Part shown: positions 2-61,528 of the stretch, piece by piece
Layout: every line of letters begins with the position of its first letter
Position numbering within the stretch: position 1 is the stretch's first letter
Source: an uncultured Gammaproteobacteria bacterium
GTDB lineage: Bacteria; Cyanobacteriota; Vampirovibrionia; LMEP-6097
Direction: 5' to 3'
DNA: 64,000 bases
Assembly: GCA_964438425.1 (NCBI GenBank)
Contig: CAYTKM010000001.1
Coordinates: forward strand, 590,603 to 654,602
Position numbers and translations under genes: made by a program
The notes under the pieces: generated by a model
Databases searched by the model: none
Told to the model about the DNA's origin: nothing
The model's input: only the letters and a program-made list of their open reading frames with translations

Positions 2-700
2 TTGAAGCATATCAGGATTAAAGCTATTGATCTTAATACTAATAAATTTATGGAACAGTCTTTTAAGATTATGATCCTAAGACCTCGCAATACTATTGAG
101 ATTATCGAAGATGAAAATGAAACAAATGATGGTCAGGATGAAGATTCTAAAGTTGATGATGTTTTAGAAGAGCAGTTACCAAATTTTATAGATACTAACT
201 CGAATAGTAAATTAGATTTTGGGGAAGTGGTAACAACCTTAGCTATTATCAATAAATCTAACAGTAAGCATAATCAATCCCAAGCAGAAATTAGACAAAA
301 ACTAGATTTTGATCGTGATGGTGAGTATACAGGTGATGATCTTAATAACATTTTTAAAATAATCAGCCAACATGAAAATTTTGATTATGCTAAGAATTTA
401 TTAGCTTTCATCGGACATAATATTCGAGGTCAAGTAACTTTCAGGCGCGCTTCAAAAGCTTTAAGACGTTTTAAAAAAATTAAATTAAGTTCAGAGCGCC
501 TTTTAGATTTTTCAGCTAAAAGACAGCTAAGAATACAAGAGCAGCTAAATTTAATGGATTTCGATCAAAGTGGTGTGCTAGATGATAGTGATCTTGAGCG
601 CTTAAAAGAAGTTTTAACCTTAGCTTTAGCTAAACCGCTTGATAATTCGGTAGCACGCCAACAAAGAATAAGAAAATTCTTACTGCTAAGTGAAAATTAA
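2..700 (+). CDS. 5'-truncated protein with three EF-hand/dockerin-like Ca-binding loops
   Basis: Open from the window edge; motifs DTNSNSKLDFGE, DFDRDGEYTGDD, DFDQSGVLDDSD fit the DxDxDG-type 12-residue loop. Confidence 0.55.
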   Translation: MKHIRIKAIDLNTNKFMEQSFKIMILRPRNTIEIIEDENETNDGQDEDSKVDDVLEEQLPNFIDTNSNSKLDFGEVVTTLAIINKSNSKHNQSQAEIRQKLDFDRDGEYTGDDLNNIFKIISQHENFDYAKNLLAFIGHNIRGQVTFRRASKALRRFKKIKLSSERLLDFSAKRQLRIQEQLNLMDFDQSGVLDDSDLERLKEVLTLALAKPLDNSVARQQRIRKFLLLSEN

Positions 701-785
701 ATTATTCTTTTAAACTTTTTGAATTAAAGTAAATTTATCAATTTTTCTAATTAAGTTGAGTTCACTAAGATATAATTTAGATTTA

Positions 786-1508
786 ATGGATATTAAATTT
801 AGACGTGTACTTTTAAAACTTAGCGGAGAAGCTTTAGTCGGAGAGGGGAGTTTAGGCATAGATTCTGCTGTCATTGGTAGAATCGCTGAAGAAATTTATC
901 TGGTATCTAGACTTGGTGTTCAGGTTTGTATAGTCGTAGGTGGTGGTAACATTTTCCGTGGTCTACAAAAATCTACAGAGCTGGGTATGGATCGAGCGGC
1001 GGCTGACTATGTTGGTATGATCGCAACAGTTATGAATTGTTTAGTACTTCAAGGAGTACTTGAAAAAAGAGGACTCGCTACACGCGTACAAACTGCTCTT
1101 ACTATGAATTCTATCGCTGAGCCTTATATTCGCCGCAAAGCTATGAGACATCTTGAAAAAGGTCGCATCGTGATCTTCGGTGCTGGTAGTGGTAACCCAT
1201 TTTTTACTACTGATACAGCAGCAGCCTTAAGAGCTTCAGAGATGGATTGTGATCTGTTAATGATGGCGAAAAATGGTATTGATGGTGTTTATACTGCTGA
1301 TCCGATGCTAGATTCTAGCGCTACTAAAATTGACGCGATGACCTACGATGATGTCATTCAAAAGAACCTAAAAGTTATGGATACTTCAGCGATTGCGTTA
1401 TGTAGAGATAATAAAGTACCGATCAGTGTTTTTGACTTCGGGCGTACAGGGGCTATTCGTGACATCGTGTATGGTTTGGATGTAGGTACTTTTATTACTG
1501 AAAATTAA
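786..1508 (+). CDS. pyrH: Uridylate kinase
   Basis: RVLLKLSGEAL, VVGGGNIFRG, GAGSGNPFFTTDTAAALRA, DGVYTADP. ATG at 786 preferred over the TTG at 756 because it matches the usual N-terminus and follows TATAAT at 771-776. Confidence 0.97.
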   Translation: MDIKFRRVLLKLSGEALVGEGSLGIDSAVIGRIAEEIYLVSRLGVQVCIVVGGGNIFRGLQKSTELGMDRAAADYVGMIATVMNCLVLQGVLEKRGLATRVQTALTMNSIAEPYIRRKAMRHLEKGRIVIFGAGSGNPFFTTDTAAALRASEMDCDLLMMAKNGIDGVYTADPMLDSSATKIDAMTYDDVIQKNLKVMDTSAIALCRDNKVPISVFDFGRTGAIRDIVYGLDVGTFITEN

Positions 1509-1605
1509 ATTTAGCTTTTTAGGTCGAATTTATTAGATGTAGGCAATTTAAAGATTTTAGGTATAGGTAAGCTTTACTATCATGCTCACAATGTCCACAT
1601 CTAAC

Positions 1606-1629
1606 TTTAATTAAGTGCACTTAATTAAA
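1606..1629. repeat. Perfect 24-bp palindrome between convergent pyrH and hisH; possible bidirectional terminator or protein site
   Basis: TTTAATTAAGTGCACTTAATTAAA equals its own reverse complement. Confidence 0.7.
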
Positions 1630-1665
1630 ATCAATTTTTAAAAGTGTTTTATAAAAAACTAACTA

Positions 1666-2372: not shown

Positions 2373-3017
2373 CTATTTATTAGGTATAAGTGCAAAGTGC
2401 TTAGCATTCAGCCAAGAAACATTACCGTTATGTTTGATTTTATACCAACCAGCTTGATCTTTACTAAGCAGTTTGATTATATTTCCTTCTCTTAAAGTAT
2501 AAAGCTCTTGATAATTTTTACTATTACCAGCATAAGTGCTAGCTTCAACTGTGTTAATCACTGCATAGTGGATTAGCTGATTTTCAATATAAATATATGC
2601 AAAATTTAAAATCGAAATGAAAAATATAAATGAAAATAAAGATTTTAGTAGCAAATTTTTAAATTTCAAGCTTATTAAAAAAATGATATTTGCTACAAAC
2701 AAAATTATACTAGCTTCTAAAGCATTAAAATACTGAAAAGTATATAAGTGACTGGTATTTTCATGATGTTTACCGTGAATAACGGCTAGATTATTTAATA
2801 GCTCTTTATTACGTGGAATAAGCTTTTTAGCCTGATATAAGTTTGCTAGCGCGCTGCCTAGTTGCTGATCTTGATAGTCAGCGCTAGCCTGATTAATTAG
2901 CAGATATGGGTTTATCTGGTCCTGCTTGGAGCTGTACTGCTGATACTTTAAATTAGCCTGCTTAAAGTTTTTATTTTTATAGTAAGTGCCAGCTTCTTTA
3001 ATAAGTTTACTATCCAT
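2373..3017 (-). CDS. BatE-like TPR + transmembrane + SH3b protein
   Basis: N-terminal TPR (ALANLYQAKKLIPRNKELLNNL), two hydrophobic helices, C-terminal SH3b-like (LREGNIIKLL..GWYKI...SWL); overlaps the batD-like stop. Confidence 0.7.
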   Translation of the reverse strand: MDSKLIKEAGTYYKNKNFKQANLKYQQYSSKQDQINPYLLINQASADYQDQQLGSALANLYQAKKLIPRNKELLNNLAVIHGKHHENTSHLYTFQYFNALEASIILFVANIIFLISLKFKNLLLKSLFSFIFFISILNFAYIYIENQLIHYAVINTVEASTYAGNSKNYQELYTLREGNIIKLLSKDQAGWYKIKHNGNVSWLNAKHFALIPNK

Positions 3018-4749
3018 ATTTCACCTTCAAAGCCTTAACTAGTGAAAGTGCTTCTTCTTTTAGATCATTAGAAACTAAGTCAACCTCGGTGTTTTGCACT
3101 CCATAGTTAAATTTATTAGTTTTTTCGATAAATTTTTCATAAAGCTCTAAAGTTTCTGGAGTTAACTTTTCGCGCTTTTTCAGTTTCTGGATTAAAGTCT
3201 TAACTTCAGTTGAAATTTCAGTGGTAGAAACAGAACTTTTAATTTTTTTAGTAGTTTTTTTATAGTCTAAACCTTTAGTGTTACTTTTACCAGCCTGCAA
3301 GAGTTTATTTTTAAATTTACGGTTGAGATAATAGATTAGTGCAGCCAAATTCAATATGAAAATAGCGAAGCACACCTGATGAAAATGAATAGCACTCGCT
3401 TGATAACCTAAAATCTGCGCTTCAGGAATAATTAATAAAGCTCGCTTGCTGGCTTCTTTTTTCTTAGTTTTAGAGCCTAGAAATGAGCTTAGCTGCTCAT
3501 CATAGGCGCGCTTACTATGATCAATATTAATAGTAAATTCCTCTGCCGGTATTGTTTGGTATTGTTTTTTAGTAGGATCAAAGTAGCTTATTTCACGGGT
3601 TTTTAGGTTAAACCTGCTAGCATCAGTTTCAGTAATAATAGCGTTTTGAATTTTTTTATAAAAGACTTGTTTATTATTTTGAAAATCTAGATCTAAAATA
3701 TCTTTATCTGTATAAAGTTCATACTGATCACTTTCTTGAATAATGTCTTTAGCAGCGATGAGATTTGGATTACCGACACCTTCAATTTCACTTGCAAGCG
3801 TAATAGCTTCGCCATACAAAATATCTTTATTATCTAAATAGTTTTCTAGGCTAAGTGAACCTACATAGCCTGAAAAGTTTTCAGGAGTTGGCTGAGGTAA
3901 AGCCTGCACCTGCATATAGACAGGTGAAGTGTTTAAAGTTATGTCTTCATCGACTTTAAAACCGATACCAAAACTAAATAAATCACTGCCAGTCTGCGGG
4001 CTCATTAAAGCAACCACATCAACTTCTGTTGCTGGAATTTCCATTCTACCCGTATGGTGCGGATAGAGAATGTAATCTATTTCATAGACTAAATATTTAC
4101 GACCAGCATAAGTAGTTTCATACTCTTTAGTTTTATCCAGTCTCTCATGCAGAAAATCATCCAGTTTGACTTCAGGTAAGTTAATATTTCTCAAGTTACC
4201 TCGATGAAAGATCTTTAGCTTCATCACAACCTGCTGGTTAACATATGGTCTATAGTTACTAATTTCTACTTTTGCAAACAGGCTTTGGGCTGCTCTTTGA
4301 GCCTGGTTAAGTTTACGGCTGCTTTGGCTGACACTGGGTTTACTAATATTTATGCTTTGCGGGGCTGGTTTCGTGCTAACGCTAACAGCGATCGGCTGAC
4401 TGCGATAAATTAGGTTATTAATTTTAATAGAAGCAGAGGGGATGACTATATTTCCAGTTACTTTAGGCAGTAAAGTATAAGTAATTTTTTTAGTTTGGGT
4501 CATATCGCCATTGATCATCTCGATACTCGTACTAGCAGCTTTAGCGATAGCTTTATAACTAGCAGTCTCTACAGGAAACCTTAGATTTTTAGCCTGCTTA
4601 CTATTAATTTCAAAGTTAATAACGATTTTCTCATTTGCCTGGTAATTTTTTTTGTTGACTGAAGCGACAATTTTGTTTTCAGCCAGGCTAGCTGACATAA
4701 ATTGCCAGCACATCACAAATATTAAAATTATTCTAGGTACTTGGTTCAT
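3010..4749 (-). CDS. batD: BatD family protein (oxygen tolerance / Bat complex)
   Basis: Signal peptide; repeated Ig-like BatD units (YTLLPKVTGNIVIP, YILYPHHTGRMEIP, VQALPQP..FSGYVG, EGVGNPNL); C-terminal TM helix. Confidence 0.8.
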   Translation of the reverse strand: MNQVPRIILIFVMCWQFMSASLAENKIVASVNKKNYQANEKIVINFEINSKQAKNLRFPVETASYKAIAKAASTSIEMINGDMTQTKKITYTLLPKVTGNIVIPSASIKINNLIYRSQPIAVSVSTKPAPQSINISKPSVSQSSRKLNQAQRAAQSLFAKVEISNYRPYVNQQVVMKLKIFHRGNLRNINLPEVKLDDFLHERLDKTKEYETTYAGRKYLVYEIDYILYPHHTGRMEIPATEVDVVALMSPQTGSDLFSFGIGFKVDEDITLNTSPVYMQVQALPQPTPENFSGYVGSLSLENYLDNKDILYGEAITLASEIEGVGNPNLIAAKDIIQESDQYELYTDKDILDLDFQNNKQVFYKKIQNAIITETDASRFNLKTREISYFDPTKKQYQTIPAEEFTINIDHSKRAYDEQLSSFLGSKTKKKEASKRALLIIPEAQILGYQASAIHFHQVCFAIFILNLAALIYYLNRKFKNKLLQAGKSNTKGLDYKKTTKKIKSSVSTTEISTEVKTLIQKLKKREKLTPETLELYEKFIEKTNKFNYGVQNTEVDLVSNDLKEEALSLVKALKVKYG

Positions 4750-5860: not shown

Positions 5861-6277
5861 TTATGTCTGGTATCCAGGGTAAATCTCCTTAAGTGGGGTC
5901 ATCACAAATTCACGATTAAGCATGCGTGGATGCGGAATGGTGAGTCGAGCATCATCTAAAGTAAGCTTATCGTATAAAAGTATATCAATATCTATAACGC
6001 GCGCACGTTTTCGACCGCGCGCGTCTCGCTCTAAATCAATTTCACGCTCTATCTGCTGGATAAAATCCAGCAATTTATATGAAGATAGCTCAGTAGTAAT
6101 TTCAACTACCGCATTTAAAAATTCGTGTGGACCTGCTGCTTCGATCGGAGGATTTGCCAGGAAACTTGAAATCTTAGTAACTTGTGTGCTTTTATTATTT
6201 AATAGCTTGATAGCCAAATTAAGATTTGCTTGACGATCACCGAGATTTGAGCCAAGAGCTAGGTAGGCGGTATGCAT
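5861..6277 (-). CDS. folK: 2-amino-4-hydroxy-6-hydroxymethyldihydropteridine diphosphokinase
   Basis: AYLALGSNLGDR, FLNAVV, RVIDIDILLY, LTIPHPRMLNREFVMTPLKEI. Confidence 0.95.
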   Translation of the reverse strand: MHTAYLALGSNLGDRQANLNLAIKLLNNKSTQVTKISSFLANPPIEAAGPHEFLNAVVEITTELSSYKLLDFIQQIEREIDLERDARGRKRARVIDIDILLYDKLTLDDARLTIPHPRMLNREFVMTPLKEIYPGYQT

Positions 6278-6307: not shown

Positions 6308-7609
6308 TTGGCTTTACTAATATTTTCAATAATTTTTATAAGTCTGGCATTTGCCAGTTTTACAAGTGTACTGAGATATCGAATAGAGCATGATTTAAGT
6401 ATTTTTAAGCCAGCTAGATCTTTTTGTCCTGAGTGCCAGACCACTTTATATTGGTGGCACAACATACCAGTTATCAGTTATCTAATTTTAAAAGGTCGCT
6501 GCTATTTCAATAACTGTAAAATCTCACTAGGTTATTTAAGTTTAGAGCTAAGTTTTGCTGCTGGTATGTCGGCTTTACTAATTTACTTGCATTATTTAGG
6601 TGAGCTTGGTGCTTTAGCTTTACAAGCTGAATTTTATGTTTTTATTTTACTGTTTTTGGCACTTAGTAGTATTTTAGTAGCGCTTGCGCTAATTGACTAT
6701 AAACATAAGTTGATACCTCATAGTCTGAGTTATAGTGGCATTTTGATCGCTATGCTGCTGGCAGCTACGGTGTACCAGCATAATTTCTGGGATATTATCG
6801 CTAAATTCGGGCTTGGTTTTTATGTTTTAGATATGTGGGGTTATTTATTATATAAATTTTACGCTCGCCAGCATCAAGAGCTCTTTGTGCCGCGCGCACT
6901 AACTTTAAATATTAGTTTTTTAAAAAATAAGCCTGAACTGTGCTTGAATTTCTATTTACTAGTGTTTGTAGTGTTGTTTATGCTGGCTCAATATGAGCTT
7001 TTATTCGTGTATTGCAGGTATTTGGGGCTGGCTTATCTGTTTTTAGAGATTATTTGGGAGCTAGCTTGCGGTGATCTAAGTCTAAATTTAGCTTTAAAAA
7101 GTGAAGCGCGCGCGCGTAACTGTGAATCTGAAGCTGAAATCAGTGATATTAGCAGTGAAAATAAAAGTTTATACGAGGTTGCAGCTAATAATAGTGTAAG
7201 TGATATTAGCCCAGACTGTGATAATAAGTACAATCAGCTAAAAGATAAGTATTTACAGGAAAAAAACTCTTTTAAAGTTAATAATATTAACTTTAGTCAA
7301 ATTGAATTAAAATCTAATACATTAGATACCTCTAAACAATTGAAAACCAGCGATGAGCAGGTGAAAACTGCCTGGGGGGGCGGTGATACTGTCTGTCTAG
7401 TACTGCTACTTATGTTAAGTGAGGTTAATATTTTAATACCGATTTTTGTGGTAGCTTTGAGTTTGCAGCTGGTACTTACTTTACTTACGCGGCTTAACCA
7501 AAACTTACATAAAAAAACAGCAACTTCAGGAATTCCACTGGGTCCAGTATTTGCAGTTAGCGGCATACTTGCTATGATAGTTACATTCTTAAGTGACCGA
7601 TTATTTTAA
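6308..7609 (+). CDS. pilD: Prepilin peptidase (A24 family) with a long hydrophilic insertion
   Basis: RSFCPECQTTLYWWHNIPVISYLILKGRC (N-terminal Zn domain), IDYKHKLIP (Asp1), WGGGD (Asp2), IPLGPVFA. Confidence 0.85.
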   Translation: MALLIFSIIFISLAFASFTSVLRYRIEHDLSIFKPARSFCPECQTTLYWWHNIPVISYLILKGRCYFNNCKISLGYLSLELSFAAGMSALLIYLHYLGELGALALQAEFYVFILLFLALSSILVALALIDYKHKLIPHSLSYSGILIAMLLAATVYQHNFWDIIAKFGLGFYVLDMWGYLLYKFYARQHQELFVPRALTLNISFLKNKPELCLNFYLLVFVVLFMLAQYELLFVYCRYLGLAYLFLEIIWELACGDLSLNLALKSEARARNCESEAEISDISSENKSLYEVAANNSVSDISPDCDNKYNQLKDKYLQEKNSFKVNNINFSQIELKSNTLDTSKQLKTSDEQVKTAWGGGDTVCLVLLLMLSEVNILIPIFVVALSLQLVLTLLTRLNQNLHKKTATSGIPLGPVFAVSGILAMIVTFLSDRLF

Positions 7610-8933
7610 ACCAGAGTTAATAGTAGATCTAAGTGAAGAGTTTATCAGGCTTGTTGATGCTGGTAATAGCTATACTTTGCAGATTTTAAGTAAAGAGTTT
7701 TTTGATGCTAAAAACTTTATGGATAGTTTGTGCGACGCTGCCGAGTCGCTTAATTTAAAGCCTAAAGCTGCTAATTTAAAGCTAATTTTACCGAATAAAT
7801 ATCTGTTTTACCAGACTGTAACTTTGCCGGAAGATGCTGCTGATAAAGAGAGAATGACTTTACTAAATATCGAGCTCGATAAAGAATATATAAAAGATTC
7901 ACGCTTCGATTTAATTAGATTGGATTCAAGTGAGCGCAGCGAAGCTAATGAAAAGGTTTGTGATTATTTGGTCTGCGCGGCTAAAACCTCTATCGTAGAG
8001 CTAGTAAAAACCTATAACAAAAACGGTGAGCCTGAGATTATTAGTGCTATGCCAGCTTTCTATGCGTTATATCCACAACTAAAGCGCGCTAAGACCATGA
8101 CTGTGTACTTAGCTAAAGATTCGACCGAAGTTACTCTATGGCAACAAGGCGATCCGATTTCACTTTCTACCCTGCAAGCAAGTGGCGATTCAGCCAGCGA
8201 TATTAATCGTTATTTAGAGAAGTACAATGAGCAATTTGAAGAGTCTGTGTATATCGATAAAGTTGAATTATATGGTCCAGAGATCGATAACTTTTCTTCG
8301 ATGTCATTCAGGCATCCCTTTGCTAAGCACGAAGATTATGATGAGCAGGTTGTAGCTAATTTAGGCAGGATTAAAGAGCATAACGTTCTTAAAGTACATA
8401 AGCTACCACGCGCGCCCATTGTGATGAACACCGCTAACATGATCACTATCGGTGCTTTAAGTTTAACTGCTCTGCTGGTGCTGACGACTATTACTTTGCA
8501 GCTATTTGGCTTAGGTCTGAATAGTAAATATATGAACCTGAAAACCCAGGCAGATAGCTATAATAGTTTGCTAGCACGTCATAAAAGATTAGGACGCGAG
8601 CTGGCTGACCTTGAAAAAGAACACAGCTTTTATCTGGAAATTACTCGAAAAAGAGCGCCATGGAACTTGATTTTAACTGATTTAGCTAAGATGACACCTC
8701 AACAACTATGGTTTGAGCGAATTTCTGCTGCTAAAGATAGTATGACGATTCAGGGCAAAGCCTTAAGTGTAAATGATGTTTCTGCGCTTTCTGTAAACCT
8801 GAACTACAACTCTAAGTATTTCCGTGATGCTAATATCGTAGGCACCCGAGATTACGAAGACCGCCTTAAATATAAGGAGTTTCAAGTAAATACTAAGCTG
8901 AAATCTCCAGTTGATAAATATCAACAAAAGTAA
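7593..8933 (+). CDS. PilM-like + PilN fusion (GspL-type architecture), type IV pilus/T2SS alignment subunit
   Basis: About 270-aa cytoplasmic domain, one TM helix, coiled coil, then PilN signature (PWNLILTDLAKMTPQQLWFERIS...TIQGKA...NSKYFRDA); overlaps the pilD stop. Confidence 0.65.
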   Translation: MTDYFKPELIVDLSEEFIRLVDAGNSYTLQILSKEFFDAKNFMDSLCDAAESLNLKPKAANLKLILPNKYLFYQTVTLPEDAADKERMTLLNIELDKEYIKDSRFDLIRLDSSERSEANEKVCDYLVCAAKTSIVELVKTYNKNGEPEIISAMPAFYALYPQLKRAKTMTVYLAKDSTEVTLWQQGDPISLSTLQASGDSASDINRYLEKYNEQFEESVYIDKVELYGPEIDNFSSMSFRHPFAKHEDYDEQVVANLGRIKEHNVLKVHKLPRAPIVMNTANMITIGALSLTALLVLTTITLQLFGLGLNSKYMNLKTQADSYNSLLARHKRLGRELADLEKEHSFYLEITRKRAPWNLILTDLAKMTPQQLWFERISAAKDSMTIQGKALSVNDVSALSVNLNYNSKYFRDANIVGTRDYEDRLKYKEFQVNTKLKSPVDKYQQK

Positions 8934-10548: not shown

Positions 10549-10657
10549 ATTTGACGAATTTAGTCCAGTCAATAAGCAAGTTAAAGTTGAGTATATGGAT
10601 GACCATGGTCGCGTTCAATGTCATGATCACATGGTCGCTACTTAAACTAGCTAAATT
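10431..10657. repeat. 106-bp tandem duplication (about 2.1 copies) of the PRC-barrel gene 3' end
   Basis: AATTTGACGAATTTAGTCCAG... starts at 10442 and 10548; junction word (G/T)AAA(T/C)TAGCT(G/A)AATT at 10431, 10537, 10643. Confidence 0.95.
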
Positions 10658-11447: not shown

Positions 11448-11860
11448 AGTACTATTTTAGCTTGTTTTAGTTGTAATGTTGCTAAAGTGAAATATTTGTA
11501 ATGAAAGTGCTTTTAATTATAGATGATAATATCTATTAAAAATTATCTGTTTATCAAACATATTAAGTTCATACTTTTTCTTTTAAAACTAAGATGGCAA
11601 TTAAACTAGATATAGATATTTAAACAAAGCTTGAATTTTATTTAAACCATATAGTTTAATTTAGGTATTTTTATTTACAAACCATCTAGAGTACCTTCTT
11701 AATTTAAGACTTTATGTATTAGCGTGAAAATTTGATGGCTGTAACTATTTTACTAGCGTAAAATAGTTATCGTAGTTGAGATAGTGCTTTAAGCTCTAAC
11801 TATTAGCTAAAGTTCAACAAAGTTATAACCTGCGCGCGCTTGGGTATATATTAAATACTT

Positions 11861-13015
11861 ATGAAAAACGATGAAGTGTATATTGTCGATCTGGCGCGCA
11901 CCCCGATGGGGCGCGGAAAACTAGGTTCGAGTTTATCTGACGTGCATCCCGTAGATCTTGGCGCTGAGCCAGTCAAAGCTCTGGTTAAACGTAATAATTT
12001 AGCAGCTAAAGCAATTGATGATGTGATTTATGGTTGCGTTACTCCGGTAGCTGATCAAGGCGCTAATATAGCTCGTTTAATAGCTCTAGTAGCTTTGGAT
12101 CAAAGTGTACCTGGCGTGCAGATAAATCGTATGTGCAGTTCAGGTTTGCAAGCTATCGATATGGCGCGTTATGCCATTTTAAGCGGCGAGCAGGATTTAG
12201 TTATCGCTGGTGGTGTTGAGCATATGGGACGCGTACCGATGGGTATGGATATGATGCCGATACCTATGTCACTAAACCAAGGTACAACTCTGCCAGACTC
12301 ATACCTAGCTAAATATAAAGTTAAAACCATGGGCGCTTCAGCCGAGATGATCGCAGAAAAATGGCAGCTTTCGCGCCAGCAGCTTGATGAATATAGTGCT
12401 GAATCTCATAGACGCGCTTACCATGCGCAGATTAATGATTATTTCGAGCGTGAAATTGTACCAGTAGCTGGTGTTACTTTAGATGAAGGTGTGCGCGCTG
12501 AACTAGATATGGAAAAAATGGCGACTTTAAAAACGCCATTTAAAGATGATGGCGTTATTACCGCAGCCAACGCCAGTCAGATAACTGATGGCGCTGCCGC
12601 GTGCCTGCTGGCAGGTACCCGCGCGCTGGAAAAATATCAGCTGAAAGCGCGCGCTAAAATAACTAAATCTTATGTTTGTGCTTTAGATCCTGAACTTCAG
12701 TTAACGGGACCTATTCCTGCGATAAATGGTATTTTAGAGCGAGCAGGGCTAACTTTAGCTGAGATAGATTTATTTGAGATTAATGAGGCTTTTGCTTCTG
12801 TGGTGCTAGCCACTACTGATGAACTTAAAATTCCACTTGAAAAAGTAAATGTAAATGGCGGCGCTATCGCGCTGGGTCATCCGCTAGGTTGCTCGGGAGC
12901 GCGCATCTTAACGACCCTCGTGCACGAATTAGAGCGCCGCAAACTAAAACGTGGTTTGGCTACCATGTGTGTAGGCTTCGGTCAGGGTATCGCTAGTATT
13001 GTAGAGTTGGTTTAG
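11861..13015 (+). CDS. Acetyl-CoA C-acyltransferase (thiolase)
   Basis: RTPMGRG, QINRMCSSGLQ (catalytic Cys), FEINEAFA, VNGGAIALGHPLGCSG, TMCVGFGQG. Confidence 0.96.
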   Translation: MKNDEVYIVDLARTPMGRGKLGSSLSDVHPVDLGAEPVKALVKRNNLAAKAIDDVIYGCVTPVADQGANIARLIALVALDQSVPGVQINRMCSSGLQAIDMARYAILSGEQDLVIAGGVEHMGRVPMGMDMMPIPMSLNQGTTLPDSYLAKYKVKTMGASAEMIAEKWQLSRQQLDEYSAESHRRAYHAQINDYFEREIVPVAGVTLDEGVRAELDMEKMATLKTPFKDDGVITAANASQITDGAAACLLAGTRALEKYQLKARAKITKSYVCALDPELQLTGPIPAINGILERAGLTLAEIDLFEINEAFASVVLATTDELKIPLEKVNVNGGAIALGHPLGCSGARILTTLVHELERRKLKRGLATMCVGFGQGIASIVELV

Positions 13016-34066: not shown

Positions 34067-34121
34067 TAGTTAATATAAGTGGTTTAAATCACTTAGCTTG
34101 AACTGTTGAAAATCTGTAAAT

Positions 34122-34361: not shown

Positions 34362-34377
34362 AAAAGGAAGGTAAAAT

Positions 34378-46732: not shown

Positions 46733-48463
46733 TTAAGCTCCTACTTTATCAGCATGAACTAGTAAAGTCGGTCGTTTACCAATCTGCTGTCGAATTATCT
46801 TTTCCATATAGTTTTTAACTACTTTTTCGCACTCGTTTAAATTAGTATTAGGGTTGTGTGTAAATAACTCTTCAACTGAATCAATAATAGGCTGAGTGTT
46901 CATCATACAAAAGGCACGCCACTCACGGTTTTTACTAAAAGTGCAGGCTTTAGAATTAAAAATAGGTCCGGCAATAATTTTATTTTTCTTATCAATCGTA
47001 AATGTAATCACTACTATGCCTTCTCTTGACATCAAGTCACGCTCATCGATCACTTCTCCGCTCACTTCATAGTGCACGCTAGAACTAAAGTAAATCTCTT
47101 TATTATCTACTTGATCAACGACTCTTAAAATGTCACCGTCAAACTCTACTTTATCACCATTTTCTAAAATTAAAATTGAGCCAGGATCAAAACTAGCTTC
47201 AACTGCAAGCTTCGCGTGCTGCACTAGATGTCTGGTTTCACCGATAGCTGGGATTAAGTATCTACTTTTAACTACGTTAAACATAAACTTCATCTCTTCA
47301 GTTAAAGCGTAAGATTCAACATTTATACCAGCATTGCGCCCACCGATTAATTTCACTTTCTTTAAAAACAACTGATCAGCAATCTGTGCCATCATACGCA
47401 CAGTACCTGGCGGCAAGTCAGCACTGTTAACTACGGTATCACCAGCTTTTAAACTAGCCTCAGCACTACGATCAAAAGCCAGCGCTTTTAAGCTATCAAT
47501 AGCCTGCATTTCAGGCGCGCTACTTAAAATAAGCACTTTATCATCATCGTAATTTTCAGTATCAAAAATATCAATAAACAGGTCATCTGGTACCTCTAAC
47601 ATGCCTAAATTACGCATTACTTTAAAGCTACGACGTACATGATAATTAAATAAAGCGATTTTTCGTCCATGTTTCAAAGCGATTTTCACCATGGTTTGTA
47701 AACGCAGAAAATTACAATTATAAGTATTGAAAAAGATCCTACCTGGAGCTGTTTTAACTATTTTAGTTAATGGTTCGATCAATTCAAGCTCAGATTTAGA
47801 GTAACCTTCTACTTCTACATTAGCTGAGCAAGCGATAAATAGATCAAATCTACGATCCATCTCAGTTTTATAATCGATATACTCGAAAAAGTGACCTAAA
47901 TCAAACTTACGTTTATCAACAGGGCTTTGGTCAAGCTTATATGAACTAGTATAAAATACTTTATTACCAGCAGCATTTACCATTAAGGCGTATGAATCAG
48001 AATACGGGCTGGTAATATGAAAAGGTACCACTTCAAAACCACCAATATGTAAAGAGATGCCAGTTTCAAAGTCAACCCACTCTATTTTATCGACTAATTT
48101 ATCGGGTAAGTCTAGTCTTATCATCTCTAAAGCTACTTTAGAGCCATAAACTTTTTTAAGATGTAACTTTTCGATGATATGAGTCGCCGCGCCAGCATGG
48201 TGCTCGTGAGTGTTAGTGATTAAAAGTGCTTTGATTTTATCGACCTTATCTTCTTTACATAAGAAGCGATAATCAGCTACACCATAATCTATACTAGGAT
48301 CATCATCACCGTAGTATTTTAAACCAGCATCGACTATTAAATATTCTGTTTCTTCAGGCTTTTGCTTATTAGACAGCTCAAACAGATGCATAGCCTTACC
48401 AATTTCATGTAAGCCACCTAAGGCAGTATATTTTAGACTAGTTTTAGATTGTTTGTTTGACAT
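46733..48463 (-). CDS. rnj: RNase J family protein with a degenerate catalytic site (probable pseudo-enzyme)
   Basis: LGGLHEIGKAM, YKLDQSPVD, beta-CASP and C-terminal MSREGIVVI / IRQQIGKRP are RNase J-like; HxHxDH reads NTHEHH. Confidence 0.8.
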   Translation of the reverse strand: MSNKQSKTSLKYTALGGLHEIGKAMHLFELSNKQKPEETEYLIVDAGLKYYGDDDPSIDYGVADYRFLCKEDKVDKIKALLITNTHEHHAGAATHIIEKLHLKKVYGSKVALEMIRLDLPDKLVDKIEWVDFETGISLHIGGFEVVPFHITSPYSDSYALMVNAAGNKVFYTSSYKLDQSPVDKRKFDLGHFFEYIDYKTEMDRRFDLFIACSANVEVEGYSKSELELIEPLTKIVKTAPGRIFFNTYNCNFLRLQTMVKIALKHGRKIALFNYHVRRSFKVMRNLGMLEVPDDLFIDIFDTENYDDDKVLILSSAPEMQAIDSLKALAFDRSAEASLKAGDTVVNSADLPPGTVRMMAQIADQLFLKKVKLIGGRNAGINVESYALTEEMKFMFNVVKSRYLIPAIGETRHLVQHAKLAVEASFDPGSILILENGDKVEFDGDILRVVDQVDNKEIYFSSSVHYEVSGEVIDERDLMSREGIVVITFTIDKKNKIIAGPIFNSKACTFSKNREWRAFCMMNTQPIIDSVEELFTHNPNTNLNECEKVVKNYMEKIIRQQIGKRPTLLVHADKVGA

Positions 48464-48514: not shown

Positions 48515-49684
48515 TTATTTTATCATTTGAACCAGTTCTTTAGTGTGACTTGTCATAAATTCATGATAAGCCTTCAATGAAGCGCCCATTTTAAAGTCAT
48601 AACCAAGCTTCGCAAGTGACATTTCAAGTGTACTTAAACCCATTAGCACATCGCGATCTGTAACGAAGCCTAAGTGACCAATTCTAAAGATTTTATCCTT
48701 AAGTTCTTTTTGACCGTTAGCAACTGTAATATGCCAGTCATTTTTAAAACCGGCACGTAGATCAGGAATACTGATACCCTCTGGAGCGTGAATCGCGGTT
48801 ATCGCTGCTGAAGCGCTACTATCCTCTGTTAAAAGCTTTAAGTCTAAAGCTTTTAAACCCGCGCGTAGTGAATCACGCAAGCGCGCGTGTCTCTTATGGA
48901 TGTTTTCTTTACCTTCAGCTTTCATTAGCTGCAAAGCATGCTCTAAAGCTACAATGTGACTGACATTTGGTGTCCATGGTGTCGTGTCGTTTTCAAGAGC
49001 CTTGCGCGCTTGCTGCCAGCAAAAGTAATAATTAGGTGTTTTGCATTCTGATTTAGCTTTTAGTGCTTCTTTAGAAACAAAGATAAAACTTAGACCTGGA
49101 GGAATCATAAAGCCTTTTTGTGAGCCTGAAACCAGTACATCGATACCAAGTTTATCCATTTCAAGTGGCATGCAACCTAAACTAGTTACTGCATCTACCA
49201 TCAGCAGCGCACCATGCTGTTTAATAATAGGAGCGAGCTCAACTAAATCATTAGCAGTGCCAGTGGAGGTTTCAGAGTGAGTAATGGTAACAGCTTTATA
49301 CTGTTTACTCGCTAAAGCAGCTTCCAAGTCAGCTTTTTGAATGCACTCACCAGGCTGCATTTTAATTACATCTTGCTCAGCGCCATATAGTTTAGCGATA
49401 TCAGCAAAACGCTGACCGAAAACACCAATGACCAGTGAAAGCACCTTATCACCTGGGTTAATAGTGTTAGCGATGCCTGCTTCCATAGCACCAGTGCCAC
49501 TTGCAGTATAAATATAGACATCGTTTTTAGTGCCAGCTAGATCTTTTAGCATTTGGTTGGCACTAACGAAAATTTTAGAAAATTCTTTGGAGCGATGACC
49601 GATCGGATGCTTGGCTAATTCAAGCAATACTGATTCGGGTACTGGAGTAGGTCCAGGTATCATTAGAAAATCTTTTTCCTGCAT
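48515..49684 (-). CDS. Class V aminotransferase (alanine-glyoxylate / serine-pyruvate family)
   Basis: LMIPGPTPVP, SGTGAMEA, THSETSTG, VDAVTSLG, SGSQKG (PLP Lys), FRIGHLG. Confidence 0.93.
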   Translation of the reverse strand: MQEKDFLMIPGPTPVPESVLLELAKHPIGHRSKEFSKIFVSANQMLKDLAGTKNDVYIYTASGTGAMEAGIANTINPGDKVLSLVIGVFGQRFADIAKLYGAEQDVIKMQPGECIQKADLEAALASKQYKAVTITHSETSTGTANDLVELAPIIKQHGALLMVDAVTSLGCMPLEMDKLGIDVLVSGSQKGFMIPPGLSFIFVSKEALKAKSECKTPNYYFCWQQARKALENDTTPWTPNVSHIVALEHALQLMKAEGKENIHKRHARLRDSLRAGLKALDLKLLTEDSSASAAITAIHAPEGISIPDLRAGFKNDWHITVANGQKELKDKIFRIGHLGFVTDRDVLMGLSTLEMSLAKLGYDFKMGASLKAYHEFMTSHTKELVQMIK

Positions 49685-51576: not shown

Positions 51577-53514
51577 ATGTATCTAGCTCCGCTTATATTT
51601 GCAATCGTCTATTATTTAGCAGCGCCAATTACTTTAAGCTATGTAAGTGGTCACGCGCTAGCACTATTAGTTAGTCTAACTCAGCTACATAAACTAAGCT
51701 CTAAATTAGTATTTTGGTTAGTATTTATTTTTACTAATCTTTTTTCAGCGCACTCTAGACTTAGTTTAGAGTACTTATTAATTATAAGTTCGATGCTGAT
51801 GATAGCTGATTCTAAATCATGGCTAAAGCTAAAATTTACTAAACAAATCACTGTATTGATTCTGTGTTTTAGTGCATTGTGGCTAGCAGATAATCTGAGG
51901 CATGTATATTATGAAAGAGGTAGCCTGGTAGTATGGTTACCTCTTTTTTTGGCTCTGTATTTAAATCAACCACTTTTTAAAGCTAAAGTGAGCGATCAGC
52001 AGGTTGCTGCTAATCAAGCTGACGCTAAAAATGAAACGGTTTTGCAAAAATGGTCTTTGTTTAAGATAGGAGAAGGATTTTTTAAAAGCGCTGCGAAGTT
52101 TTTACCTCAATTTAGACATATAATAAATTTTATTGCTGCTATTTTAAGTGTCATTAATAACAAAAAAACCACTTTAATCGCTTTTGGCGCTCATTTATAC
52201 TTAAATTATAAAAATAAATTTATAACTGGACTATTATTAATAAGCTTGCCAGCAGCTTTTTTCGTTAAAGATAGTTTAGCTAGATTCTGGAAAGTGTCGA
52301 TGGAAGCCAGGTTATATGTGTATCAAGCGGTTTTTAACGGTATTTTAGCTAAACCTTTAACTGGACACGGCTTTGGTACTTTTACTCTTGACTTTCCTAA
52401 ATATCGTTTGCATGCAGGGGCGTTTGGCACGCATGCTAGCGAGCAAGTCGGGCACGCGCATAATTTATGGTTGCATTTTGCTTTTGAGCTGGGAATGCTA
52501 GGGCTGGTATTAATGCTTGCTTTAAGTTATCTAGTATTCAAGCTTGAAAAAAAAGCCTTAGTACCTTTTTTAGTTATTACGCTGTTTGATATGCCACTTT
52601 CAGGCTTTAATCACTACGCTTTACTTGGCTTGATCCTAGCGCCTTTAATTTACCAAAAACTTTATTTAGCTGCTGGTTTAGGTGAAAATAGTGATGTTGC
52701 TAATTTAAAAAGTGAATCTGACTTCCGTGATGTGAAAGTAGCGGCTGATAGCAGTTATAGTGCTAATTTGAAAAGTGAGGCTAGCTTTAATACTTCTCAG
52801 AAATTAGCTAGTGATAGTAATAGCAGTGAGCTTAATAATAAAGTTTATATTAGAAACACTGTGGGTGTTACCGAAAAACAGCTATCAAGTACAGCAAATA
52901 GAGACCCAATTTTAAAATACTTATTTTATGATATTAGTCACTGGGGCTGGCATTTAAGATTTGCTTTAAAACTTAGTTTATATATAATCGCACTTTATAT
53001 TTTTATACCAAGTTTAATTGGGCACTTTTATTATGATGCTGGCAAGTTAAATCAGGCTTTAAGGTGGGATAGCCAGCAACCTTTATATTATTTTGCGCGC
53101 GCCTCGCGCGATCTTGAAAGTGCGCCGGCGCGCGCGCTAACAGATTTAAGGCATGCGGTAAAGCTGGCACCGAGCGTGCCTTATTTTCATGGTTTTTTAG
53201 CTGCGGCTGAACTTAAGGCTGGTACATTAATAGCAGCAGCTAGGCACAGTAAACTTGCCTTGAAACTAGGAGGACGTGATAGCTACTGGCTTTTACTTCA
53301 TGGTATTAGTCTGCAAGCTTTAGATAAAAAATCTCAAGCTGACTTTTATTTGAAAAAAGCTTTTAAAAAAGATATTCACCTAAAAGATGTACTAGCTAAC
53401 CCTAAGCTCGGTTCATATAAATTTATCGGCTCTAAAAAAGCTGATCCACGTATAGCAAGCTTTTACCGTCAGGGAGATAAAGTTTATCTGCCACTGCCGT
53501 ATATAGAACACTAA
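51577..53514 (+). CDS. O-antigen ligase (Wzy_C)-like membrane protein with C-terminal TPR
   Basis: Multi-TM; RLYVYQ...KPLTGHGFGTF...HAHNLWLHFAFELGMLGL; TPR-like tail (ALTDLRHAVKLAPSVPYFH). Confidence 0.75.
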   Translation: MYLAPLIFAIVYYLAAPITLSYVSGHALALLVSLTQLHKLSSKLVFWLVFIFTNLFSAHSRLSLEYLLIISSMLMIADSKSWLKLKFTKQITVLILCFSALWLADNLRHVYYERGSLVVWLPLFLALYLNQPLFKAKVSDQQVAANQADAKNETVLQKWSLFKIGEGFFKSAAKFLPQFRHIINFIAAILSVINNKKTTLIAFGAHLYLNYKNKFITGLLLISLPAAFFVKDSLARFWKVSMEARLYVYQAVFNGILAKPLTGHGFGTFTLDFPKYRLHAGAFGTHASEQVGHAHNLWLHFAFELGMLGLVLMLALSYLVFKLEKKALVPFLVITLFDMPLSGFNHYALLGLILAPLIYQKLYLAAGLGENSDVANLKSESDFRDVKVAADSSYSANLKSEASFNTSQKLASDSNSSELNNKVYIRNTVGVTEKQLSSTANRDPILKYLFYDISHWGWHLRFALKLSLYIIALYIFIPSLIGHFYYDAGKLNQALRWDSQQPLYYFARASRDLESAPARALTDLRHAVKLAPSVPYFHGFLAAAELKAGTLIAAARHSKLALKLGGRDSYWLLLHGISLQALDKKSQADFYLKKAFKKDIHLKDVLANPKLGSYKFIGSKKADPRIASFYRQGDKVYLPLPYIEH

Positions 53515-59100: not shown

Positions 59101-59267
59101 GCTTGAAGGTCTGATCTAGTAGTTGTTTTTTTCTTATTATCTAAGATATTTTTTTCACTAGAAGAGTTATTTTTTTTAGCTGTTATCAGGTAAGTTTTTT
59201 TAATTCTGTCTAAAAGCCTAATGCGCGCAGAATCGTTATTTCCTAAAAATTTTTGTATGTTGAGCAA
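56115..59267 (-). CDS. Large N/K/S/L/D-rich helical hypothetical protein
   Basis: 1050-aa ORF, no signal peptide, composition like the 13012-20407 pair. Confidence 0.75.
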   Translation of the reverse strand: MLNIQKFLGNNDSARIRLLDRIKKTYLITAKKNNSSSEKNILDNKKKTTTRSDLQALNSIKNQNSNNKTTFKLVPNLLNNRAQASKLAKHNLDDADLKILRCYEKPHLTLDHADIVSDLNRLVGTTNGSISLNPLNDIKTENDLFNFLNSDSTANQLDKPEISQLLKDKVSEIELTDVRDVKADYLNIESRFKAQLESKDLLSKLIELKQYPAAIDLQIKKAQQLAELDYSSDLANSYKFHFIQFQELASRAWEDSDLALSINDTTLRNDIASLIFKQYSTAPATEKFQDWFDLISSVKGTVGKTADFPAESVDRFPPNDPKLRKSYQNFILDHLAELTYSRHLDDSFAQPESQFRTRISKTTPAKKNEPKASDLRSFKGMLNEFIKNITNYQDTYNLMNLDSLNSAKQRSVINFLIKTKLHLSDPTEESQFINKLQATVTSNLAKVANNHDDSTVRNLAKELKKTLNHENISAVNSLIHKIDSFSILSPKLSPVDWQQKFLKYQNLSAAESLLYLHASTQDKQATLSQSAPGIEHIAKHVIETQNNDTDLISKLKISNQLSNFPLLKNLLNQQIINQINSKPANFENLMLNLVQGLKIDFNPDLVKLISTALESYQDRFDTPEVLGELKADSGIINARNHINNKITLTDSLIKISLKSADDTPDNSKLKLQVIDYLSSAISDYLELETADKLGTNNFQNRLRASLEQMLKISTAPKLIDLKADFDFKTGHSAKELQMTLMQNESGKEVISKMGQEIYDRLDTLSSFFDDIDNGNITDDNFLKEKFEQHILEQTKLNNDLLEILNRLPVEEREGIELSENFQNILETSLLPAQIRLLQDYDKNFLGVSDKNIMNSLIDSVTGEVNRNSIKPENDNSLDTIYSPKLANLFNDQLYDGKTANFDITELTTSQVLNDEDAFYDLKDHLIANFEKRLTKQDSQALVELGKGLSYENNDPEIEQLSNLLALKILFSSYDVSHQKAALNILTQANEITDIVDDLGNSYQELMEMFDRAFEEPVDETQAFSKFVSILVEKNDNNTLQQLSDLYDKLV

Positions 59268-59435
59268 GATAAAACCTCGGTGTATTATCTTAGCGCGTTT
59301 TCAGATAACAACTTTAAATTTTGATTAAAATTTGTTATAACATAATTGTGAGCTAGTGAAACTGATCTAAGGCTTTAAACTATGACTTAGCAGGACAGTT
59401 AAATTTTAAAATTTTTTAGGGGAATGAAGCTTTTT

Positions 59436-59483
59436 GTACGCCGGCTTTAATTTTTAACTTCTTTAATGTTGAAGCCGGCGTAC
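59436..59483. repeat. GC-rich 12-bp perfect inverted repeat in a long AT-rich intergenic region
   Basis: GTACGCCGGCTT-N24-AAGCCGGCGTAC. Confidence 0.75.
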
Positions 59484-60149
59484 CCTACCTTAAGCTTTTA
59501 TCCACTTGGATACAAGACTTATAAGCCTAGCTCTGTTTATGAAAAAGTTAATTAACATAATATTTTCAGTATATCAGTCTTAAGATGAGAGTTTAACTTA
59601 ACTAACTCAAGCTAGCAAAGCTTTTTGGATTGCACTAAAACCGGCAAGCCAATTTACTGCTGTTATTTCTGAAGTAAGTGGCAGCGCGGAATCCGTATTA
59701 CAAATGATTAAGTTAACTTTACTTTCAGGTGAAAGCTTGAGTACTAGTGCACTTTTTATAGACATTATTTTATACCATATTTAAGTGCAACTTTAATTTG
59801 GTATAAATTTATTTAAGTAACTTTAACTGATTTATAGCTTTAAATTTAATAAGTTTCAAGAAATTGATAGCCTGAGTATCTATAAAATTATATTTCTAAG
59901 GCTTATATAGATATCTTGGCATTTATTGAGGGCTTAGTGAATTTTTCGGGGTGGCAACTTATCTTTCAGGGCTTGCAAGCGAAATTATATGTTGTTTATA
60001 AAATGCTTTAAAACGTAGATTTCTGCATTTTAAAGCACGCTAAGCTTCTTGCGAAATATTTATTTATTCTATAAAAGTCTGCAAACTTACCTGCAAGAAT
60101 GTGTATATTTAAAGCATCACAAAACCTGAATGTTAAAATCATCTTTACT

Positions 60150-60668
60150 GTGAGCAATATAAGATTTATAAATTCAGCAGATGACTCTTATAAGTTAAAT
60201 AAGAATGCCGCTAGCGAAAATATAACTGTTCAGGCAGCTGTAAGTCTTAAAGATAATCAGGATGAAGATGATAAAAAAGCTCGGACTGCTGTCAGTATGA
60301 GTAAACATATTTTAGATGTGCATGCCAGAAAAGAAAATCAGGAAGCATTAATAGATCCTCTGGGTGCTCTTTTAGATGCAGTTTTAATCCAAAGAACTAA
60401 CATAGAAATGTCAAAGCCTATGAAGCATCATGACTTAATTCAGGTGCTAGAAGCGCGCAAAAAGCTTTCACCTGTATCAGCTAAAACTAGTAATATGATA
60501 AATTTAATGCTTAATTTTTTGAATCTTAAAACTAAGACAAGCATCAGCTCTGATGAAAAAATTGCGTTGACTAATATGCTTGAAAAACTTAAACATACTG
60601 TCGAGTCTTATACTGAAAATTATTCAGCTGATGACGCTAAATTTTTAAAAGAGCTTTTTGCTGAGTAA
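60150..60668 (+). CDS. Hypothetical protein
   Basis: ORF track start 60099; GTG at 60150 preferred because TGTTAAAAT lies 10 nt upstream. Confidence 0.55.
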   Translation: MSNIRFINSADDSYKLNKNAASENITVQAAVSLKDNQDEDDKKARTAVSMSKHILDVHARKENQEALIDPLGALLDAVLIQRTNIEMSKPMKHHDLIQVLEARKKLSPVSAKTSNMINLMLNFLNLKTKTSISSDEKIALTNMLEKLKHTVESYTENYSADDAKFLKELFAE

Positions 60669-60826
60669 CATTTTTCTGCCGATACTTCATTAGTTTGCAG
60701 CTGATAGTTTTTTTACTAGCGTGAATCGAATCCAAGCTTTGAGTTATGATATGGTGAGCGCTATCATAAGGGTTGCAGGATATATCTTCATCTTATTTAT
60801 TACTGAATAATTTCCCGCAAAGGTCT

Positions 60827-61528
60827 TTACTCTGGCGACTCAAGAGTTTTAGTGCATTCTGCGCCACCTGAAAAATTAATTTTCTGGTAACAGTTTTTAC
60901 GGTAGTTAATTATGTAACCCTGCTCGAAAGGTATAGTTAAGGTGTAAAACAGATTTTTCTCTTTAATCACACTGCGCTTTTCACCATTAGCATCGACTCT
61001 GTACCATTTACCGTTAAGAGTTTCACCTTCTACAACTATAGTTGGCCAACCTGTCGTAGGATCATTACCTACACCGACTGTACCAGTTGATGAAGTAGCT
61101 TCAAACTTTCGGCGACCTTTTTTAGTGGTGATGGCGATATAAACTAATACACGGTCAGCTGGAGTGGCAAAGTTTCTAGATATAGTATGTGCCTTACCTA
61201 AAGCGTAATCTTCTGGTTCACGAAAACTGACTCTAGCGTAAGTTCTGTTTTTCTTTTTAGACCGATTGAAAATAAAATTATGTACGTTAGCGGTTCCTGT
61301 AGGAGCGATCGTGTACTGCGCGCGTGTACTTTTGCGACCTTCGATATCGAAAAACGCACGTGGAGCGAACTTATTTTTCTTCTTTTTATTTTTTTTAGCT
61401 GAAACAGTATAGCTTTTCGTATTTAAATACTGACTCACCTGACCTAATAGATTATCATGACTAGCATTTAGAGCTATAAATAGAGGAGCGATTAATATTA
61501 AAGCAAGTAAAAGTGACTTATTAAACAT
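60827..61528 (-). CDS. Secreted basic beta-rich hypothetical protein
   Basis: Signal peptide MFNKSLLLALILIAPLFIALNA, Lys run KKNKKKKNK, C-terminal Cys pair. Confidence 0.7.
   Translation of the reverse strand: MFNKSLLLALILIAPLFIALNASHDNLLGQVSQYLNTKSYTVSAKKNKKKKNKFAPRAFFDIEGRKSTRAQYTIAPTGTANVHNFIFNRSKKKNRTYARVSFREPEDYALGKAHTISRNFATPADRVLVYIAITTKKGRRKFEATSSTGTVGVGNDPTTGWPTIVVEGETLNGKWYRVDANGEKRSVIKEKNLFYTLTIPFEQGYIINYRKNCYQKINFSGGAECTKTLESPE

Follow-up and report, generated by a model that had tools for sequence, protein, structure and literature searches.

Where highly iterated palindromes (HIPs) come from and what they do has been an open question for some 30 years, in part because HIP1, ancient and found throughout the cyanobacteria, offers no before-and-after comparison. 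We analysed the hexamer GCGCGC in a 64,000-nt window (the whole stretch of DNA under study; 34.7% G+C) of a Caenarcaniphilales (Melainabacteria) metagenome-assembled genome (MAG) from a microbial mat and conclude that it is a genuine HIP that arose recently in one Caenarcaniphilales lineage. The closest known system is that of the alternate HIPs, GGCGCC in Calothrix PCC 7103, GCsGC in Cyanothece PCC 7822 and rCCGGy in Oscillatoria PCC 10802, which occur sporadically in single lineages without HIP1, consist of 75–100% G+C, reach 1000–2000 copies per Mb and are found together with a cognate methyltransferase (Elhai 2015, PMC4390886). Like these palindromes of 5–6 nt, GCGCGC is a G/C word within genes, a gross outlier among palindromes of its length and sporadic in a single lineage, in a host without HIP1 excess (one HIP1 copy in the window); its density is about 780 matches per Mb (0.78 matches and 0.61 loci per kb of window). 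It differs in the word itself, in its host, a non-photosynthetic Melainabacterium rather than a cyanobacterium, in overlapping itself and hence growing into (GC)4–5 runs, and in that no cognate methyltransferase was found in the window and its 16.7 kb of flanks (81 kb of sequence in total).

More distant comparisons can be drawn with three other systems. HIP1 (GCGATCGC) shares with GCGCGC the architecture of a GC-flanked palindrome, G-[core]-C, frame independence in coding DNA, an unexplained origin and the avoidance of restriction words such as GGCC in the same genomes. The octamer HIP1 is, however, ancient, exceeds expectation 15- to 300-fold, occurs across the whole phylum and is conserved from species to species (PMC5861425), whereas GCGCGC, a hexamer in 7- to 9-fold excess, is young and relatives lack it; HIP1 one-offs differ from the word mainly at its ends, a bias that GCGCGC one-offs do not show. 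The DNA uptake sequences (DUS) of Neisseria and the uptake signal sequences (USS) of Pasteurellaceae are similar in occurring about once per 1–2 kb, mostly in genes and in all frames, in forming lineage-specific ‘dialects’, in accumulating by drive rather than by site-by-site function and in shaping the encoded peptides, but they are non-palindromic words of 9–12 nt with an experimentally demonstrated uptake bias. The Dcm/Vsr footprint of E. coli (CCWGG excess, CTAG deficit) likewise includes an over-represented palindrome, there a methylated word enriched via biased repair; that effect is small, restricted to transitions and accompanied by depletion of near-cognates, whereas for GCGCGC transversions dominate and near-cognates are not depleted. 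A literature search returned no report of GCGCGC as a HIP, nor of any HIP in Melainabacteria.

GCGCGC is present in 50 overlapping matches that form 39 separate alternating G/C runs of 6–11 nt (Table 1). All runs but one (38 of 39) lie inside open reading frames (ORFs). Base composition alone predicts 1.75 matches, and dinucleotide-preserving shuffles of the window gave 5.6 ± 2.2 (maximum 11 in 100 shuffles). Genes were taken from 46 simple longest-ORF calls covering 87% of the window, and the 48 matches in coding sequences (CDS) were compared with three kinds of codon-aware null, each with 500 shuffles: whole-codon permutation predicted 4.7, synonymous-codon permutation within each gene 6.8 ± 2.7 (a 7-fold excess), and a very conservative synonymous shuffle preserving both protein and dinucleotides 21.4 ± 4.0 (2.2-fold), with none of the 500 reaching 48. 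In genes, the word stands about seven to nine times above the codon habits of this genome. Intergenic DNA (27% G+C) contributes one locus with 2 matches against 0.17 expected (about 12x). Under an order-1 model GCGCGC is enriched 9.0x and the overlapping CGCGCG 11.3x, none of the other 62 hexamer palindromes exceeds 2.8x, and GCGCGC ranks top among all 4096 hexamers under both order-1 and order-3 models. A first-pass annotation of this DNA had described GCGCGC as a highly iterated, HIP-like palindrome with a word of its own in an AT-rich genome, and had asked whether the enrichment would survive a dinucleotide-controlled codon null, which it does; the word positions it gave (445, 5999, 6017, 7106-7116, 11832-11839, 28398, 39573, 39597, 53095 and 53128-53137) are all correct, and its HIP-like description agrees with a short all-G/C palindrome that lies above codon- and dinucleotide-aware nulls in all three frames at 0.6–0.8 per kb.

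What exactly is enriched was resolved by classifying maximal alternating runs, a procedure that removes the pentamer circularity of high-order Markov models. Relative to the synonymous shuffle, isolated CGCG is at 0.73x, isolated GCGC at 1.37x and 5-nt runs at 1.38x; the excess then starts abruptly at run length 6, with 19 isolated GCGCGC against 4.2 expected, and runs of at least 7 nt, every one of which contains GCGCGC, are at 7.6–12x, with per-length ratios of up to about 100 for the rarest run lengths. The dinucleotide-preserving null agrees in confining the excess to runs that contain GCGCGC. Isolated CGCGCG was seen 3 times against 2.5 expected, where equal enrichment would give 11, a difference that is significant against the codon null. 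The identity of the word as GCGCGC is well supported but not proven. Among 36 strand-merged all-G/C hexamers the only outliers are GCGCGC (6.7x), CGCGCG (6.0x), which overlaps GCGCGC in longer runs, and the one-off pair GGCGCG/CGCGCC (3.6x). The other G/C palindromes lie near 1 (GGCGCC 1.6x, GCCGGC 0.9x, CCGCGG 1.2x), and quasi-palindrome correction or general G/C clustering was rejected on these values. Alternations of AT, AC, GT, AG and CT are at or below expectation at every length, and the flanks of the runs show no extended consensus, purine-pyrimidine alternation stopping at the run ends.

The excess is independent of reading frame and acts at the level of DNA, not of codons, peptides or mRNA. 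The 48 CDS matches are spread over the three frames (19/13/16), and frames 1 and 2, in which the word spans three codons, are as enriched as frame 0. GCT accounts for 58% and GCG for 12% of Ala codons and CGC for 21% of Arg codons, yet Ala-Arg is written as GCG-CGC more often than as any other codon pair (19 of 60 dipeptides), as the first-pass annotation had noted in pointing to GCG/CGC usage despite a preference for GCT. Occupancy is 13 of 53 in [S/C/R/G]-Ala-[L/P/H/Q/R] contexts and 16 of 53 in x-Arg-Ala contexts, and about 30% of all permissive peptide contexts carry the word (25–32% across frames). Such even occupancy in frames spanning two or three codons rules out a codon-pair effect at the level of translation; the force is one on DNA.

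The host belongs to the sister lineage of Cyanobacteria, its Mfd protein being most similar (69–71% identity) to those of “Candidatus Caenarcanales”/Melainabacteria MAGs. The same strain was found in two JGI metagenomes (0 and 1 mismatches) and in runs of one microbial-mat metagenome; beyond it, the closest relative among 5.8 billion proteins has 69% (Mfd) or 73% (thiolase) identity, and scans of genome and metagenome contigs turned up nothing nearer. In a set of 167.5 kb from about ten related genomes, representing eleven loci, GCGCGC occurs 13 times against 7.5 expected, compared with 50 against 5.6 in the window, and nine of the eleven loci carry 0–2 copies. These near-expected counts indicate that the excess is specific to this lineage. 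A weak excess was observed in L006 (JACCDV010000213.1; 4 vs 1.1 expected) and L011 (JGI 3300036770; 6 vs 2.1), where rho(GC) is higher, and the trait may be present sporadically in more distant relatives of the order. Nine GCGCGC loci in mfd, RNase J, the class-V aminotransferase and thiolase were compared with orthologues in 36 window-versus-relative pairs. In none of the 36 does the relative (59–73% protein identity, all without the trait) have GCGCGC at the orthologous position; relatives typically read GCT/GCA-AGA there, and reaching GCGCGC from the usual codons of this clade requires transversions. The 114 differences at these loci, which are not polarised substitutions and stand at a distance where synonymous sites are saturated, fall into 81 transversions (A>C 45, T>G 22, C>G 10, G>C 4; 71%) and 33 transitions, and 100 of them run in the AT-to-GC direction. 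On the sequences compared, the GCGCGC excess appears to be young, derived and confined to one Caenarcaniphilales lineage. The earlier idea that a sister lineage of Cyanobacteria has a HIP system of its own, in parallel, is thus upheld as to the host and the HIP-like behaviour, but not as to its breadth, given that relatives at about 70% protein identity lack the word.

The word has also altered proteins. In an alignment of the thiolase with 118 relatives, four of the five word loci use a minority residue that supplies the needed base: Ala12 (V54/I50/A2 in relatives), Val211, encoded by GTG (I110/V8), Arg254 (S/K/A/D/E/H) and Ala263 (P103/A14), where the change from a Pro found in 103 of the 118 relatives creates GCGCGCGC. 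The class-V aminotransferase has Ala-Arg (GCG CGC) where relatives have Ala-Lys (GCT AAA). Permissive contexts number 13 in the thiolase against 6.1 ± 2.0 in the 118 relatives, one of which reaches 13; Mfd shows no rise in permissive contexts over its relatives. Protein-altering sites of this kind imply a process that can hold its own against purifying selection at the protein level. The excess reflects a directional, word-specific AT-to-GC process on DNA that fixes transitions and transversions; it completes the word where Ala/Arg-type codons supply a GC.CG. seed, with about 30% of coding contexts filled, and it has grown overlapping copies into 8–11-nt runs and replaced conserved residues in places. 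The thiolase gene (11861-13015) is the most G+C-rich of the window (45.9%), and its product has 47 Ala and 19 Arg, compared with means of 38 and 15 in the 118 relatives; the GCGCGC drive may have raised these numbers as a by-product.

Along the window the word follows its contexts. The ORF regions that the first-pass annotation had listed as nearly free of GCGCGC (13012-20407, 31862-36660 and 56115-59267) do hold only 1, 0 and 1 matches, but its suggestion that they were recently acquired is not borne out: they offer 20 permissive contexts in about 4,900 amino acids, compared with 146 in the remainder, with an occupancy of 2/20 against 46/146 (Fisher p = 0.064), and occupancy does not differ significantly from gene to gene, a single rate fitting all of them (dispersion test P = 0.90). 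The depleted ORFs mostly lack Ala-Arg/Arg-Ala seeds. Position within genes is without bias. Five pairs of runs lie at most 30 bp apart, against 2.0 expected by context-matched chance (P = 0.03, marginal), mostly because Ala/Arg contexts themselves cluster. These close pairs (5998-6023, 12620-12654, 23915-23950, 39573-39605 and 53095-53137), with word starts 18–33 bp apart and 11–25 nt between runs, could form G/C-clamped hairpins in mRNA or single-stranded DNA, complementarity ending at the runs. In the flanks, GCGCGC occurs 3 times in the 7.6 kb before the window and not at all in the 9.1 kb beyond its end (L014 1-9133), where none of 21 permissive contexts is filled and the genes look accessory (TetR, MAPEG, Spond_N, a 989-amino-acid ArabFuran-catal protein and part of a 1409-amino-acid protein). 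The empty flank is suggestive of younger DNA, although this is not significant in the gene-level dispersion test.

Restriction words behave differently from GCGCGC in the same DNA. GGCC is present 7 times in the window against 66 expected and is similarly depleted in every Caenarcaniphilales relative examined, a clade-wide deficit that is either restriction avoidance (HaeIII type) or a footprint of GGCC methylation. CTGCAG (PstI type; 2 vs 14 expected) is depleted in this genome only. Since true restriction words are avoided here, GCGCGC was rejected as a restriction target, which would fit an orphan enzyme.

How such a process might work can be outlined by analogy with the cyanobacterial systems. 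GCGCGC would be read by a sequence-specific protein that recognises a palindrome of 6 bp, most likely an orphan cytosine methyltransferase that has BssHII-type (GCGCGC) specificity and that the lineage would have acquired. Strands or alleles with the methylated word would then be favoured in mismatch repair and/or homologous recombination, a ratchet or biased gene conversion of the kind put forward by Elhai for HIP1 and alternate HIPs (PMC4390886); every kind of word-completing mutation would be preferentially kept, and GCGCGC would accumulate against AT pressure. We consider methyltransferase-linked biased repair or recombination at GCGCGC, as proposed for HIPs, a serious possibility that stops short of being probable, and regard more tentatively the fuller proposition that this is an independently evolved young HIP system in which one newly gained GCGCGC reader drives fixation and rewrites conserved residues. 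Several observations weigh against such a reading. Pfam and NCBIfam profile scans, including 40 ORFs of the window, detected no DNA methyltransferase, C5 methyltransferase, Vsr or nicking enzyme in the window and its 16.7 kb of flanks, the only methyltransferase of the window being PrmC/HemK-like (22021-22896). The preference for GCGCGC over CGCGCG is not independent of a general GpC > CpG bias, isolated CGCGCG being seen 3 times against about 5 under the stricter dinucleotide-preserving null. One-off neighbours show no depletion (0.8–2.0x) and lack the end-position bias predicted by Elhai's core-plus-flank version with a CGCG core, and the loci are clustered rather than saturating at an even spacing of about 1 kb (gaps over-dispersed, mean 1.6 kb, coefficient of variation 1.25, maximum 9.1 kb). 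A general CpG methyltransferase, which the first-pass annotation had also entertained, fits poorly with isolated CGCG at 0.73x and a rho(CG) of 0.82.

The main rival is that GCGCGC is a putative DNA-uptake signal and/or recombination hotspot, like DUS/USS or Chi, spread by molecular drive; methylation is optional in it, and it overlaps with the explanation by a methyltransferase should the mark being read be methylation. For HIP1, a role as uptake or recombination signal is the currently favoured function; its abundance shows a phylogenetic correlation with genes for secretion and transformation, and it has been suggested to serve as an uptake sequence (PMC13756078). Uptake drive would explain why GCGCGC is independent of frame, arises by all types of mutation, includes protein-altering sites, has mildly enriched one-offs and is specific to one lineage. 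The window contains two adjacent type IV pilus genes (prepilin-peptidase-like, 6308-7609; PilN-domain, 7593-8933), but word-free relatives (L011) have pilus genes as well, and 6 bp discriminate self from non-self poorly compared with the 9–12 nt of DUS/USS; we hold this account to be rather unlikely. It is improbable that the sites are individually selected as binding sites of a chromosome-organising or regulatory protein. A 6-bp palindrome would suit a dimeric DNA-binding protein, and a role in nucleoid structure was proposed by Xu et al. 2018 for HIP1, whose cyanobacterial sites show conservation and quasi-periodic spacing (PMC5861425). GCGCGC spacing, however, is clustered and random, not regular; uniform occupancy across genes looks like a blind seed-limited process rather than positional selection, and selection on a single site among thousands would hardly outweigh the replacement of a residue as conserved as the thiolase Pro.

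The remaining alternatives fare worse. A by-product of very-short-patch (Vsr-type) T:G repair at methylated GCGCGC, as proposed for CCWGG in E. coli, would have the right direction, the methylated word being over-represented in the Dcm/Vsr system, and could account for the 33 differences that are A>G or T>C transitions. The other 71% are transversions beyond the reach of T:G-specific repair, and deamination-type neighbours are raised 1.6–2.0x rather than depleted (GTGCGC/GCGCAC 1.56x, GCACGC/GCGTGC 2.0x, ACGCGC/GCGCGT 1.56x), which makes such an origin very unlikely; T:G-only repair as the sole cause is disfavoured on the same grounds. Slippage of a (GC)n microsatellite, or selection for Z-DNA tracts, might be read from the enrichment of 7–11-nt runs as a class and from the five close run pairs. 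We nevertheless discount it almost entirely. No other dinucleotide alternation is enriched, 38 of the 39 runs lie in-frame within genes, where 2-nt slippage would be lethal, enrichment begins at 6 nt with the classic Z-former CGCGCG near expectation when isolated, and the flanks do not extend the purine-pyrimidine alternation; 6 bp are also too short for Z-DNA. Slippage had been named beforehand as a possible trivial cause, and the lack of enrichment in other dinucleotide repeats and in isolated 4- and 5-nt runs excludes it. A compositional, codon-usage or codon-pair artefact without a word-specific cause has next to nothing left to recommend it. The order-4 Markov model does predict 88 of 100 two-strand counts, and rho(GC) is high genome-wide (1.68); that fit is circular, because GCGCG pentamers lie mostly within the word itself, isolated 4- and 5-nt runs are near expectation, four codon- or dinucleotide-aware nulls fall short of the observed count, and the two frames that span three codons are enriched as strongly as the first.

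The value of this case lies in its youth: relatives of the same order lack GCGCGC and still show the ancestral codons. Changes from Pro to Ala, Ile to Val and Lys to Arg reveal the process prevailing over protein conservation. The case clearly demonstrates that a drive at the level of DNA, rather than site-by-site function, can install such words. Any mechanism has to fix transversions as well as transitions, which takes T:G-only repair out of consideration. If the reading of GCGCGC as a young HIP is true, comparing the gene content of word-bearing and word-free genomes could name the causal gene and settle the origin of HIPs. For annotators, codon-pair and amino-acid oddities such as the thiolase Ala/Arg excess can be side-effects of a DNA word.

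Table 1. Alternating G/C runs containing GCGCGC in the 64-kb window, with the gene used as query for relatives.
Feature	Position	Gene (CDS, strand)	Frame	Peptide	Remark
GCGCGC	445..450	CDS 2-700 (+)	2	RRA	
GCGCGC	2849..2854	CDS 2373-3017 (-)	1	SAL	
GCGCGC	3506..3511	BatD-like, 3010-4749 (-)	2	KRA	
CGCGCGC	5998..6004	HPPK, 5861-6277 (-)		ARV	
CGCGCGCG	6016..6023	HPPK, 5861-6277 (-)		DARG	Word start 18 bp after that of 5998 run; 11-nt gap between runs
CGCGCGC	6891..6897	Prepilin-peptidase-like, 6308-7609 (+)		PRA	
GCGCGCGCGCG	7106..7116	Prepilin-peptidase-like, 6308-7609 (+)		ARAR	Longest run, 11 nt
GCGCGC	8084..8089	PilN-domain, 7593-8933 (+)		KRA	
CGCGCGC	8409..8415	PilN-domain, 7593-8933 (+)		RAP	
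GCGCGCGC	11832..11839				Only intergenic locus; 22 nt upstream of thiolase ATG
GCGCGC	11894..11899	Thiolase, 11861-13015 (+)		AR	Ala12
GCGCGC	12493..12498	Thiolase, 11861-13015 (+)		VRA	Val211 (GTG)
CGCGCGC	12620..12626	Thiolase, 11861-13015 (+)		RAL	Arg254
GCGCGCGC	12647..12654	Thiolase, 11861-13015 (+)		ARA	Ala263
GCGCGC	12899..12904	Thiolase, 11861-13015 (+)		AR	Purely synonymous vs GCT/GCA-AGA in 5 relatives
GCGCGC	15877..15882	1274-aa orphan, 13012-16836 (-)		AR	
GCGCGCGC	21188..21195	Hydrolase, 20758-21753 (-)		ARA	
GCGCGC	23179..23184	Class-III aminotransferase, 22896-24209 (-)		LRA	
GCGCGC	23438..23443	Class-III aminotransferase, 22896-24209 (-)		CAQ	
CGCGCGC	23915..23921	Class-III aminotransferase, 22896-24209 (-)		ARE	
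GCGCGC	23945..23950	Class-III aminotransferase, 22896-24209 (-)		GAP	
CGCGCGCGC	28397..28405	Fe-S subunit, 27705-28460 (+)		IARA	
GCGCGC	30434..30439	UvrC, 29742-31694 (+)		ERA	
GCGCGCGCG	39573..39581	793-aa CDS, 37309-39690 (-)		TRAH	
CGCGCGCGCG	39596..39605	793-aa CDS, 37309-39690 (-)		PRAR	Word start 24 bp after that of 39573 run; 14-nt gap between runs
GCGCGC	39967..39972	1007-aa CDS, 39691-42714 (-)		AR	
GCGCGC	41220..41225	1007-aa CDS, 39691-42714 (-)		GAL	
CGCGCGC	41373..41379	1007-aa CDS, 39691-42714 (-)		ARE	
GCGCGCG	42313..42319	1007-aa CDS, 39691-42714 (-)		TAR	
mfd gene	43176-46730	mfd (-)			Query for relatives
GCGCGCG	43276..43282	mfd, 43176-46730 (-)		TRA	Word absent from 3 relatives
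GCGCGC	47515..47520	RNase J, 46733-48463 (-)		SAP	Word absent from 4 relatives
GCGCGCG	48881..48887	Class-V aminotransferase, 48515-49684 (-)		HAR	Relatives GCA-CGC or GCA-CGT
GCGCGC	49004..49009	Class-V aminotransferase, 48515-49684 (-)		AR	Relatives Ala-Lys (GCT AAA)
GCGCGCGC	53095..53102	Wzy_C, 51577-53514 (+)		ARA	
GCGCGCGCGC	53128..53137	Wzy_C, 51577-53514 (+)		ARAL	
GCGCGC	59223..59228	1050-aa orphan, 56115-59267 (-)		AR	
GCGCGC	60453..60458	CDS 60099-60668 (+)		AR	
GCGCGCG	61318..61324	CDS 60827-61528 (-)		RAQ	
GCGCGC	61858..61863	Pirin, 61619-62377 (-)		GAQ	Outside the end coordinate of the first-pass annotation

Some features of neighbouring genes were recorded alongside. The prepilin-peptidase-like protein has an unusually long C-terminal half, and the PilN domain is C-terminal in a protein of 446 amino acids; these type IV pilus genes would become relevant if GCGCGC proves linked to DNA uptake. 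The relatives L010, L011 and L013 share the gene order mutL - CBS-pair gene - thiolase (cf. window 10905-13015), while mutL is not at that position in this genome or in its closest relative L009. The second metagenome copy of the strain (JGI 3300040789, L016 1763-1887) differs from window positions 10495-10551 by about 106 extra nt and a cluster of mismatches, a structural variant at the 3' end of the PRC-barrel gene that adjoins a 30-bp dyad array in strains that are otherwise identical.

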